DNA from: Escherichia coli
GTDB lineage: Bacteria; Pseudomonadota; Gammaproteobacteria; Enterobacterales; Enterobacteriaceae
Reading direction: 5' to 3' (one strand)
Assembly (NCBI RefSeq): GCF_044647545.1
Contig: NZ_CP172818.1
DNA length: 64,000 nucleotides
Part shown: one piece after another, positions 11,318 through 15,419 of the stretch
Numbering within the stretch: position 1 is the first letter of the stretch
Layout: each line of letters begins with the position of its first letter
Translations under genes and position numbers: made by a program
Notes under the pieces: generated by a model
The model's database searches: none
What the model was told of the DNA's origin: nothing
The model's input: only the letters and a program-made list of their open reading frames with translations

Positions 11318-12256
11318 ATGAGTAAAGTCTTTATTTGCGCCGCCATTCCGGACGAACAGGCAATAAAGGAAGAAGGTGCCGTCGCTGTAGCCACTGCCAT
11401 TGAAGCCGGTGATGAACGTCGCGCCCGCGCAAAATTTCACTGGCAATTCCTGGAACATTATCCGGCTGCTCAGGACTGCGCTTATAAATTTCTTGTTTGC
11501 GAGGATAAACCCGGTATACCCCGCCCTGCCCTCGATTCCTGGGATGCTGAATATATGCAGGAAAACCGCTGGGATGAGGCGTCTGCTTCCTTTGTCCCGG
11601 TCGAGACTGAATCCGATCCGATGAACGTCACTTTTGACAACCTAGCCCCTGAAGTACAGAACGCTGTCATGGTTAAGTTCGACACATGTGAAAACATCAC
11701 TGTTGATATGGTGATTAGCGCACAGGAATTGTTGCAGGAAGACATGGCAACATTCGACGGCCATATCGTTGAAGCGTTGATGAAAATGCCAGAAGTTAAC
11801 GCTATGTATCCGGAGCTTAAGCTGCATGCCATCGGGTGGGTTAAGCATAAATGTAAGCCTGGTGCCAAATGGCCCGAAATTCAGGCAGAGATGCGCATCT
11901 GGAAAAAACGTCGCGAAGGTGAACGCAAGGAAGCCGGAAAATACACGTCTGTTGTTGATCTCGCCCGCGCCAGAGCCAATCAACAGCACACTGAAAATTC
12001 AACAGGAAAAATCAACCCGGTCATTGCTGCCATTCATCGCGAATACAAGCAGACATGGAAAACACTGGATGACGAACTGGCCTACGCTCTCTGGCCTGGT
12101 GATGTGGATGCCGGAAACATTGACGGCAGCATCCATCGCTGGGCAAAAAATGAAGTTATCGACAACGACCGCGAAGACTGGAAGCGTATCTCGGCATCAA
12201 TGCGCAAACAGCCTGATGCCCTTCGCTCACGACCGCCAGAATGCGCTGTTGCTTGA
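11318..12256 (+). CDS. ydfE: Prophage protein YdfE-like; 3' end runs into IS-derived sequence
   Basis: 312 aa ORF with RBS; position after ydfD. Confidence 0.65.
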   Translation: MSKVFICAAIPDEQAIKEEGAVAVATAIEAGDERRARAKFHWQFLEHYPAAQDCAYKFLVCEDKPGIPRPALDSWDAEYMQENRWDEASASFVPVETESDPMNVTFDNLAPEVQNAVMVKFDTCENITVDMVISAQELLQEDMATFDGHIVEALMKMPEVNAMYPELKLHAIGWVKHKCKPGAKWPEIQAEMRIWKKRREGERKEAGKYTSVVDLARARANQQHTENSTGKINPVIAAIHREYKQTWKTLDDELAYALWPGDVDAGNIDGSIHRWAKNEVIDNDREDWKRISASMRKQPDALRSRPPECAVA

Positions 12257-12960
12257 CCGAAAACCTCTGTACCGACATCAAAACGGGCACAAAATACAGG
12301 CAGAAAGTTACCGATGAAAGAAAGCAAATCAAGCGCAATGATACTCTGACGAGTACGAGAAAACTGCAGTGATAACGGCAACAGAGAATGAAAAAAACAA
12401 AAAACAAAAAAAAAAAAAAAAAAAAAAAAAAAAAAAAAACAAAAAAAAACGCCTGCGTGTCAGAGCGGTGGCGCTGAAAACTGCCCTGATTGTGAAGGCA
12501 CTGCACAGGGCGAATCACTACCAGACGGCATCAAATAGTGAAACAATACAGGACGATCATGCTGGGAGAAATGGAACGCCAACTTCGACACACGATTTTG
12601 CGCCGTCTCCAGTGGAGTGGCTGACGGATAATGGTTCATGCTACCGGGCTAATGAAACACGCCAGTTCGCCCGGATGTTGGAACTTGAACCGAAGAACAC
12701 GGCGGTGCGGAGTCCGGAGAGTAACGGAATAGCAGAAAGCTTCGTGAAAACAATAAAGCGAGACTACATCAGTATCATGCCCAAACCAGACGGGTTAATG
12801 GCAGCAAAGAACCTTGCAGAGGCGTTCGAGCATTATAACGAATGGCATCCGCATAGTGCGCTGGATTACGCTCGCCACGGGAATATCAGCGGCACCTGGC
12901 TTGATAAAGGCAATTAAGTGATAAGAGAAGTCTGAAAGAGAAATATCCGACAGGCGTGGA
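12200..12960 (+). mobile_element. insD: Degenerate IS2-family (IS3 family) transposase orfB remnant, no orfA, interrupted by poly(A) tract
   Basis: Translated segments RQNALLLDRKP (approx 12215-12250) and [25 protein letters not shown]...EWHPHSAL (12560-12860) match IS2 InsD as recalled; ends approximate. Confidence 0.7.
12390..12450 (+). repeat. A-rich homopolymer-like tract (57 A + 4 C; longest pure run 35 A at 12405-12439)
   Basis: Directly read from sequence. Confidence 0.97.
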
Positions 12961-12997
12961 AAACCATGGAGGGAAATTACGTATCTGTTTTTTATAA

Positions 12998-14212
12998 AGG
13001 CGTAAGAGCAGGGAAAACCTGGGGGTCGAAAAAGGAAAAAAAAGGCGCGTTGCAGGTGAGCTACGCGCCTCTGTTTGTTACGCAATAAAAACTGGTGTTT
13101 TCGACTATGCAAAACAGTTTCCCTCCTCACGCAATCTGGAAAAATTTGGTGAGGCCCGACAAGATTTAACCATAAAAGAACTGGCTGAAAAATTTCTGGC
13201 ACTGAAAGAAACTGAAGTCGCAAAAACATCACTCAACACATACCGTGCCGTCATCAAAAATATCCTGAGCATAATCGGTGAAAAAAATCTTGCCTCATCG
13301 ATTAATAAAGAAAAATTACTGGAGGTTCGTAAAGAGCTACTGACTGGATACCAGATCCCCAAAAGTAACTATATTGTTACACAACCAGGGAGATCGGCTG
13401 TAACTGTAAATAATTACATGACAAATCTTAACGCCGTGTTCCAGTTTGGTGTTGATAACGGTTACCTGGCAGATAACCCGTTTAAGGGGATCTCGCCATT
13501 AAAGGAATCAAGAACCATTCCGGATCCTCTTTCGCGGGAGGAATTCATCCGTCTTATCGATGCGTGCAGAAATCAGCAAGCCAAAAATTTATGGTGTGTT
13601 TCTGTTTATACTGGCGTTCGCCCTGGTGAGCTGTGTGCACTTGGATGGGAGGACATAGATCTGAAAAATGGAACAATGATGATCAGGAGAAATTTAGCAA
13701 AAGACCGTTTCACGGTACCAAAAACACAGGCGGGAACCAATCGGGTCATTCATCTTATTAAGCCAGCAATCGACGCTCTCCGGAGTCAGATGACATTAAC
13801 GAGACTGAGCAAAGAGCATATCATTGATGTTCACCTCAGAGAGTATGGCAGAACAGAAAAACATAAATGCACCTTTGTTTTTCAACCTGAAGTGTCAGCG
13901 AGAGTAAAAAATTATGGTGACCATTTTACCGTTGACTCAATAAGGCAGATGTGGGACGCAGCGATAAAACGTGCCGGACTCCGCCATCGAAAATCATATC
14001 AGTCGAGACATACTTATGCCTGCTGGTCGCTGACAGCTGGTGCTAACCCGGCATTTATAGCAAACCAGATGGGCCATGCAGATGCGCAAATGGTATTTCA
14101 GGTATACGGAAAATGGATGTCTGAAAACAATAATGCACAGGTAGCTTTGTTAAATACACAGTTAAGCGAGTTTGCCCCAACCATGCCCCATAACGAAGCA
14201 ATGAAAAATTAA
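12998..14212 (+). pseudogene. intQ: Lambdoid tyrosine integrase lacking its start (N-terminus displaced by the IS fragment)
   Basis: Open frame from 12998 with no plausible start until internal M at 13418; C-terminal catalytic region with HxxR (QSRHTYACW) and tyrosine (VYGKWM) signatures. Confidence 0.8.
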
Positions 14213-14399
14213 TTTAATATTTATCAAATAGTTGACACGTATGACTCTTGAAATCCATAAATTCAAGCGCAGTGCCCAGCCATCCCGATACTGCTGCTTT
14301 CACCAAATCCTTAGTGCTTCTTTCGTGTTTTTCTATTGTCATAATGGTTATCTCTAAAAAAGAGGTAAGATGCGTACTACTTACTCGCCGTTATTGGTA

Positions 14400-15419
14400 T
14401 TATTCAGAAAAAGTGAGTAAGACTTTGCAGCAATGCTTTTGATCCTGTTCAAATAAACTAATGGCATCAGCAACATGCTGGAAATCAAACGTATGGGTAA
14501 TTAGTTTTTCTGGTTTAATTAACCCTTTACTTAACCAGTCGATAACGACCGGGAATTTATTTGCATTTAAGCGTGAAGAGAAAATAGAGAGTTCTTTTCC
14601 GGTAATTCCTTGCTGAATCACTTCAGACGGTTCACTGGAGAAGCCCATCAATACAATACGTGCCGCTGGAGAAGCCAGCGTTACGGCCTCTTTCAGGATA
14701 GAAGGATGACAAGCCGCATCGATAATTAATGTCGGCTTTATGCCTTTTTCAGCGAAAATCTCGCCAAGCGGTGTCTGGCTGTTATTAATCGCCCAGTCTG
14801 CCCCGCTCTCTTTCGCTTTTTCCAGTCGTTCATCAATGCGATCGGCAACAATCACATTCTTAACGTTATAGACGCCTTTTAATACCTGAACGATCGTCAG
14901 GCCGATTGGACCGGCACCATAAACCAGAACGGTATCATTTTCAGTCGGTTGACCATGTCCGGTTACGTTAGCCGCAATGGTAAAAGGTTCGATCATTACC
15001 GCATATTGATCGGCCACTGCTTCAGGAATTTTCCACGCATTTTTTGCCGGAACCACGGCATATTCACTGAAACCACCGTCAGCGTGCACACCTAATACAG
15101 CCAGTGTCGTACAAACGTTCGGTTTACCTATAGAGCACGGATAGCAATGCCCACAGCTGACCACCGGATCGACAGCAACACGTTCACCGACTCTGGCGCT
15201 TTCCACGCCTTCACCCACTGCATCAATGACGCCAAAGAATTCATGACCAATGACGCGCGGATATTTCGCAAAAGGATTATGCCCACGATAAATATGGCTA
15301 TCTGAACCACAAATTCCGGCAAGTTTCACTTTTACTCGTACTTCACCCGCTGACGGGGTGGGTATTTCGCGTTCGATAATTGCCAGTTGATTCGGTTTTT
15401 CAATTAAAATGCTTTTCAT
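14400..15419 (-). CDS. rspB: Zn-dependent medium-chain dehydrogenase (starvation-sensing protein RspB)
   Basis: 339 aa from MKSILIEK; GHEFFG and Cys ligands; GAGPIG Rossmann motif; GGAG RBS. Confidence 0.9.
   Translation of the reverse strand: MKSILIEKPNQLAIIEREIPTPSAGEVRVKVKLAGICGSDSHIYRGHNPFAKYPRVIGHEFFGVIDAVGEGVESARVGERVAVDPVVSCGHCYPCSIGKPNVCTTLAVLGVHADGGFSEYAVVPAKNAWKIPEAVADQYAVMIEPFTIAANVTGHGQPTENDTVLVYGAGPIGLTIVQVLKGVYNVKNVIVADRIDERLEKAKESGADWAINNSQTPLGEIFAEKGIKPTLIIDAACHPSILKEAVTLASPAARIVLMGFSSEPSEVIQQGITGKELSIFSSRLNANKFPVVIDWLSKGLIKPEKLITHTFDFQHVADAISLFEQDQKHCCKVLLTFSE

Follow-up and report, generated by a model that had tools for sequence, protein, structure and literature searches.

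A Probable Allele-Blending Artefact at the Integrase End of a Qin/mEp460-Type Prophage in Escherichia coli

The Locus and Its Attachment Site

In a 64-kb stretch of Escherichia coli DNA (contig NZ_CP172818.1; hereafter, the window), positions 11318–14342 are the integrase-proximal (right) end of a lambdoid prophage of the Qin/mEp460 type. Here, a truncated exonuclease gene (exo), a fragment related to the insertion sequence (IS) IS2 and an integrase gene (int) without a start codon are followed by the attachment site in the host gene ydfJ. An earlier note on this DNA had read the arrangement as a decayed prophage end, produced by IS insertion into the int 5' end and subsequent deletion. The comparisons described below suggest, instead, that the most conspicuous part of it, the 815 bp from 12228 to 13042, is probably a computational or assembly artefact. 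The features concerned, including open reading frames (ORFs), are as follows, with strand in brackets.

11318–12256 (+): truncated prophage exonuclease gene, ydfE-like; residues 1–303 of 823 aa plus a 9-residue out-of-frame tail
12228–13042 (+): anomalous stretch of 815 bp; probable artefact in which IS2 (K-12 allele) and the intact exo...int 5' allele are mixed base by base, plus noise biased to A
12234–12937 (+): IS2 orfB-like fragment; IS2 nt 703–836 and 844–1315 of 1331, by blastn against the full IS2 from CFS3246
12390–12449 (+): A-rich filler between IS2 nt 836 and 844; 34-nt A run at 12406–12439 and 9-nt A run at 12441–12449
12937–14212 (+): integrase pseudogene, mEp460/Qin type, from alignment to ECONIH1 int, translations, tblastn and Pfam
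13418–14212 (+): longest start-bearing ORF left in int, from the ORF list; 264 aa, catalytic domain only
14213–14249 (no strand): phage-derived attR arm between int stop and core, identical to the int-side arm of the mEp460_ev081 attP
14250–14260 (no strand): att core GAAATCCATAA, an 11-mer comprising the crossover region and the prophage–host junction, 37 bp past the int stop
14214–14342 (−): ynfP-like ORF of 42 codons, from the ORF list; the first 31, promoter-proximal ydfJ codons (14250–14342) plus 11 phage-derived codons

The identity of the locus follows from gene order and flanks, which agree with those of K-12 Qin and of the prophage in strain ECONIH1, from the composition of a phage attP, from the reconstructed attB, from the identity of the integrase to that of isolated phages, and from the published integration site of Qin, which is the 5' end of ydfJ (PMC6379469).

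The exact attachment core and the prophage–host junction, which had been predicted to lie within 14213–14399, are now fixed at 14250–14260 by four kinds of site, namely the attL of K-12 and of ECONIH1, the attP of an isolated phage and the empty attB. The direct-repeat comparison with the other Qin end that had been proposed was run on the left end in K-12, where GAAATCCATAA proved to be the only repeat of at least 9 nt shared with the region following int; the annotated limits of Qin match it exactly. The same 11-mer is found at the attL of ECONIH1 and in the attP of phage mEp460_ev081, and the latter is composed, base for base, of the left arm of the window's attR, the core, and the right arm of the ECONIH1 attL. 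Joining the two host arms yields an intact ydfJ 5' end, reading MTIEKHERSTKDLVKAAVSGWLGTALEFMDFQLYSLG..., and the reconstructed attB is uninterrupted, i.e., an empty site, in 2,011 of 5,426 complete genomes, near-identical ST648-type strains included. A junction at this core in the ydfJ 5' end is consistent with recombination between attP and attB, and the prophage is integrated by Campbell recombination at the 11-bp core, beside rspB. The window does not extend as far as attL; in K-12, attL is situated approximately 6.6 kb further upstream than the equivalent of the window's first base.

Among near-identical ST648-type backbones, the ydfJ site is either empty (strains ST648 and WB61) or occupied by a complete 46-kb prophage (ECONIH1); thus, the site is actively polymorphic within this lineage. 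The ORF spanning the junction corresponds to one annotated as ynfP in K-12, with 42 codons in the window versus 36 in K-12; this fusion of the ydfJ N-terminus with phage sequence extends further into phage DNA because a single-nucleotide polymorphism removes the K-12 stop codon.

The Integrase Pseudogene

The int frame ends with a TAA stop codon at 14210–14212, is interrupted upstream by a TAA at 12995–12997, and is open from 12998. The earlier description of a start-less integrase is borne out, as no in-frame ATG, GTG or TTG occurs from 12998 before the ATG at 13418, and no Shine-Dalgarno-like motif was found upstream of that ATG. An upstream in-frame start with a ribosome-binding site, which would have spoken against this description, was looked for and is not there; the four bases at the place of the former ATG (12937–12940) are A-G-A-G, so that the start codon reads GAG. 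Yet it is at this former start codon, and not at 12998, that int-homologous DNA begins. In tblastn, integrase residues 2–426 align in one frame over 12941–14209; hence, the alignment with an intact integrase, suggested as a way of defining missing N-terminal residues, revealed that the 5' end of the gene is not deleted and that only two codons of the N-terminal part have been lost by deletion.

The lesions are confined to DNA upstream of 13043. Codons 2–16 and 26–31 are intact. Three 1-bp deletions (12988, 12991 and 13009) put codons 17–25 out of frame, resulting in the in-frame TAA at 12995–12997, and codons 32–37 are altered by a 3-bp deletion at 13027–13028 together with C→A/G changes. From 13043 onwards, the remaining 389 residues (codons 38–426) are identical to the intact Int of ECONIH1. 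In the translation of 12998–14209, the C-terminal catalytic domain is recognisable (Phage_integrase, PF00589, residues 179–370, E 3.3e-18), and the N-terminal Arm-DNA-bind_2 domain (PF12167) is incomplete, with only its C-terminal two thirds matched (profile positions 24–65 of 65, E 5.3e-8) as compared with positions 1–65 in the intact Int (E 5.6e-24). With its start codon lost and a TAA in frame, the int of the window is predicted not to be a functional gene. The intact ECONIH1 Int, which shares 99.3–99.8% identity with the integrases of the isolated phages mEp460_ev081, HannyBb, PhiR42_1 and Tritos, provides a 426-aa reference for scoring decay at this locus.

A search of the whole window for the excisionase gene xis (tblastn with the 83-aa ECONIH1 Xis) returned nothing at E ≤ 1e-3. 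Since neither Int nor Xis would be available, the prophage is expected to be unable to excise itself, and its excision module is probably dead. In K-12, likewise, intQ of Qin is inactive and no excision was detected (PMC3105296). To that extent, the earlier view of a prophage fixed in place holds, while the mechanism proposed for it, IS insertion followed by deletion, is unsupported in the window.

The Anomalous Stretch

On either side of the stretch, the window is close to ECONIH1. Over the ~51 kb from 13043 to 64000, only 1 substitution and two small clusters of deletions separate the two; the 12 kb from 14400 to 26400 are 100.0% identical to ECONIH1, strain ST648, WB61 and other ST648-type genomes, and, to the left, 8484–12240 shows 99.7% identity to ECONIH1. 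Every difference between the window and ECONIH1 from 10403 to 16818 lies within 12228–13042. The chromosomal part of the window is E. coli, and its flanks are of the ST648 type (about 100% versus ECONIH1) rather than the K-12 type (98.4%): the alignment of 13053–47501 with K-12 MG1655 (ydfE...tus) is gapless, with 265 synonymous versus 30 non-synonymous codon differences. Given this predominance of synonymous substitutions, the backbone is natural, and random noise across it was rejected as an explanation; so was a generally poor long-read assembly, as the DNA to the right of 13043 has a single substitution and is free of indels beyond the two clusters, which lie at a deletion junction in the uid region.

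On the left side, exonuclease residues 1–303 are 100% identical to ECONIH1 (tblastn), codons 304–823 are absent from the window, and DNA identity extends to 12240, interrupted by one additional C (12228). The junction between ydfE and the IS2 remnant IS2E of K-12 would fall at window position 12084.

The IS2-like orfB fragment, noted earlier as degenerate at both ends and directly preceding int, is there as described. It comprises two blocks of different identity, 12234–12378 with 82.9% to IS2 nt 703–836 and 12453–12937 with 89.7% to nt 844–1315, and an ORF within it matches rve_3 (E 3.1e-16). IS2 nt 1–702 and 1316–1331 are absent; the IS2 end strings and inverted repeats were sought in the whole window without a match, and there is no target duplication. 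Relative to IS2, 12234–12937 carries 45 substitutions and 30 indel bases in addition to ~60 nt of A-rich filler, whose two A runs are the only homopolymers of at least 9 nt in the window. The changes are heavily biased to A (29 of 45 substitutions; 23 of 27 inserted bases) and strand-asymmetric, with 17 G>A versus 4 C>T and 10 T>A versus no A>T. The best database match is canonical IS2 itself at 87.6–87.7%, with nothing above 87.7% either among the 5,426 E. coli genomes or among the 72,556 plasmids; at 82.9% and 89.7%, the two blocks fall short of the near-identity that natural IS2 copies and remnants display.

The fragment also bears traces of DNA that the window lacks. A comparison of IS2E with the deleted exo/xis segment reveals no similarity (best E 0.46), whereas the IS2-like stretch of the window matches this segment at three collinear places (E 7.5e-14, 1.6e-10 and 4.5e-6). 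In three-way alignments, the departures from IS2 mostly follow exo, switching every 1–5 bases, which accounts for 62 of 63 bases within one patch. The K-12 and the intact alleles are not alignable with each other from 12084 to 13053; the blur starts shortly after the former position and stops at 13042, 11 bp short of the latter. The right "junction", too, reads as a blend: in GTGATAAGAGAAGTCTGAAAGAGAAATATCC, letters of the IS2 end alternate with those of the native DNA upstream of int.

Neither the 5,426 complete E. coli genomes nor the 72,556 plasmids contain the arrangement, four window-unique strings had zero matches in GTDB genomes and JGI metagenomes, and the window-specific 312-aa exo' product had no exact match in an exact-protein index. 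For the ydfT-like product, an exact match was obtained solely with an uninformative metagenome contig of 923 bp. A second window-unique blur consists of a 3-bp deletion at 52872, just past ydgA, and of 11 deleted bases with substitutions at 53037–53044. It sits exactly at the ST648-type uidCBA deletion junction; the deletion structure is present in 85 genomes, the window's version of it in none (best 98.0%).

Taken together, the divergence contrast, the A bias, the IS2/exo chimerism, the coincidence of the boundaries with the allele limits, the uniqueness of the arrangement, and a second blur at a structural-variant junction suggest, with a probability that we put at roughly 65%, that 12228–13042 is a computational or assembly artefact and not natural decay. 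The damaged stretch would be a base-by-base mix of two natural alleles, that of K-12 (exo'-IS2E-'intQ) and the intact one (exo-xis-int), to which an A-biased noise component and the 34-nt A run would have been added; its source may be consensus building, polishing, assembly or sequence generation at a site of structural polymorphism.

Several points weigh against this interpretation. It is drawn from the pattern of the sequence alone. Short strings are shared at both junctions, CGCCAGA (exo/IS2) and AAATAT (IS2 end/int start), and these count against an artefact because real illegitimate recombination would use such strings, too. The left part of the prophage is a natural-looking mosaic with long tracts, so that the window as a whole is not synthetic. 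Finally, mixed-allele polishing, reference-guided consensus and model-generated infill would each explain only some of the features.

The window contains at least two stretches blurred exactly at structural-variant junctions, and a "degenerate IS" or a "start-less gene" within such stretches should receive no evolutionary reading without read-level support.

Alternative Explanations

A genuine, independent rearrangement in the lineage is the first alternative to be weighed, and we regard it as unlikely. IS2 would have landed at the int start or immediately before it, after which two microhomology deletions, at CGCCAGA and AAATAT, would have removed IS2 nt 1–702 and the right end of IS2, along with xis and the distal part of the exonuclease gene; unusual local mutagenesis would have followed. 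The shared junction strings are as expected from such events, a clean IS2 core is recognisable at ~12590–12880, and other strains, too, have IS2 inserted hereabouts, DH10B within intQ and CFS3246 in the ydfJ fragment. However, the rearrangement would require that the divergence of 0.7 kb exceed that of the ~51 kb to the right more than 3,000-fold, and it leaves unexplained the interleaving of exo bases with IS2 at a scale of 1–5 nt, the strand-asymmetric A bias with the 34-nt A run, and the ending of the int lesions at the boundary of the K-12 allele; moreover, the arrangement is in no other genome or metagenome searched. An intermediate with IS2 inside int and xis retained was considered and rejected, as int is intact in CFS3246 and the IS2 of that strain comes after it, within the ydfJ fragment.

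In a bolder version, the stretch would be real DNA throughout, originating from an independent IS2-associated collapse of exo-xis-int in an ST648-type lineage, followed by intensely localised, strand-asymmetric, A-directed mutation with patches templated from the deleted exonuclease gene. We consider this very improbable; were it true, repair of an error-prone or template-switching kind would come into consideration, as would an RNA-mediated mechanism that leaves an A tract behind.

The model of the earlier note, in which the K-12 Qin event (IS2 into the int 5' end with adjacent deletion) was followed by slow decay of the remnant, has hardly any likelihood for the window. The architecture does mirror that of K-12, with exo', an identically oriented 3' part of IS2, int, attR and rspB. 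Neither K-12 junction (exo nt 767/IS2 nt 626; IS2 nt 1331/int codon 41) is present in the window, though, which retains a further 156 bp of exo and a further 115 bp of int, is without the right terminus of IS2, and has flanks of the other type; in K-12 itself, IS2E shows zero decay. Thus, insertion into the int 5' end with deletion fits K-12 and not the window, in which that 5' end is kept. Of the decayed Qin-type prophage end, what stands is an inactive, start-less int beside an IS2-derived stretch; what does not is the degeneracy of the IS as in-situ decay, since the flanks are near-identical to ST648-type genomes such as ECONIH1 while the fragment is 10–17% diverged and carries bases of the deleted exonuclease gene.

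That the fragment is a natural, divergent IS2 relative acquired in an already degenerate state can be set aside as most improbable, for although 83–90% identity is within the range between related IS3-family elements, the best match among the E. coli genomes and the plasmids, which are from multiple genera, is canonical IS2 and none is closer, and the exo-derived bases and the A run would have no explanation.

The Remainder of the Prophage

The left part of the prophage is mosaic. Positions 2–8875 (cspI...relBE, hokD...dicC) are 97% like K-12 Qin, while 140–1739 and 8484–12240 are of the ECONIH1 type; where K-12 and ECONIH1 differ, the window follows either one in long tracts, as in natural recombination. 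Fine-scale blending in this part was, hence, rejected. Small indels and substitutions relative to ECONIH1 are found at 8991, 9015, 10257 and 10361–10402, in the prophage immunity/dicB-upstream region; a few of the indels are unique to the window, and the missing G at 10257 is located within a minus-strand hypothetical gene of 66 codons. For 8900–12227, no complete E. coli genome gave a match above 99.7%.

Comparison with Known Systems

Prophages of the Qin type in ydfJ have been described in the literature, as have the inactivity of their integrase and their "grounding", and intact relatives are known as isolated phages; little of the biology at this locus is, therefore, new.

K-12 Qin (ydfE'-IS2E/insD7-intQ'-ynfP, in ydfJ beside rspB) has the same integration site and 11-bp core as the window and the same order, dicB-ydfD-exo-(IS2 piece)-int-attR-rspB; in both, the integrase is inactive and xis is absent. 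They differ in that the first 40 int codons are gone in K-12, with the IS2 right terminus set against codon 41, whereas the window keeps int from codon 2. IS2E comprises IS2 nt 626–1331 and is identical to active IS2 in 706 of 706 positions, which implies that natural IS2 remnants at this locus are undecayed; the IS2-like stretch of the window, in contrast, is 83–90% identical and has no terminus.

ECONIH1 harbours a complete lambdoid prophage of 46,127 bp in ydfJ, in which the genes for the exonuclease (823 aa), Xis (83 aa) and Int (426 aa, ATG included) are full-length. Intact elements of this ECONIH1/mEp460 type have ~2.0 kb (L005, 15100–17120) in place of the 0.8-kb anomalous stretch. In the isolated phage mEp460_ev081, the attP arm and core are identical to the attR of the window.

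With IS2 (IS3 family, 1331 bp), the window is collinear over the 3' part of orfB (InsD), including the rve_3 domain match. Its fragment differs in being devoid of inverted repeats, orfA and a target duplication, in lying 10–17% below every natural copy searched, and in having exo bases and an A run embedded in it.

IS2 is also met at this site in other strains. CFS3246 carries a full IS2 (L008, 5412–6742; approximately window 14297–14301) in what remains of the ydfJ N-terminal part, with TCACC as its target duplication and downstream of intact xis-int, and K-12 derivatives such as DH10B have a further full IS2 inside intQ (L002, 4108–5336); these copies indicate that IS2 repeatedly strikes this neighbourhood.

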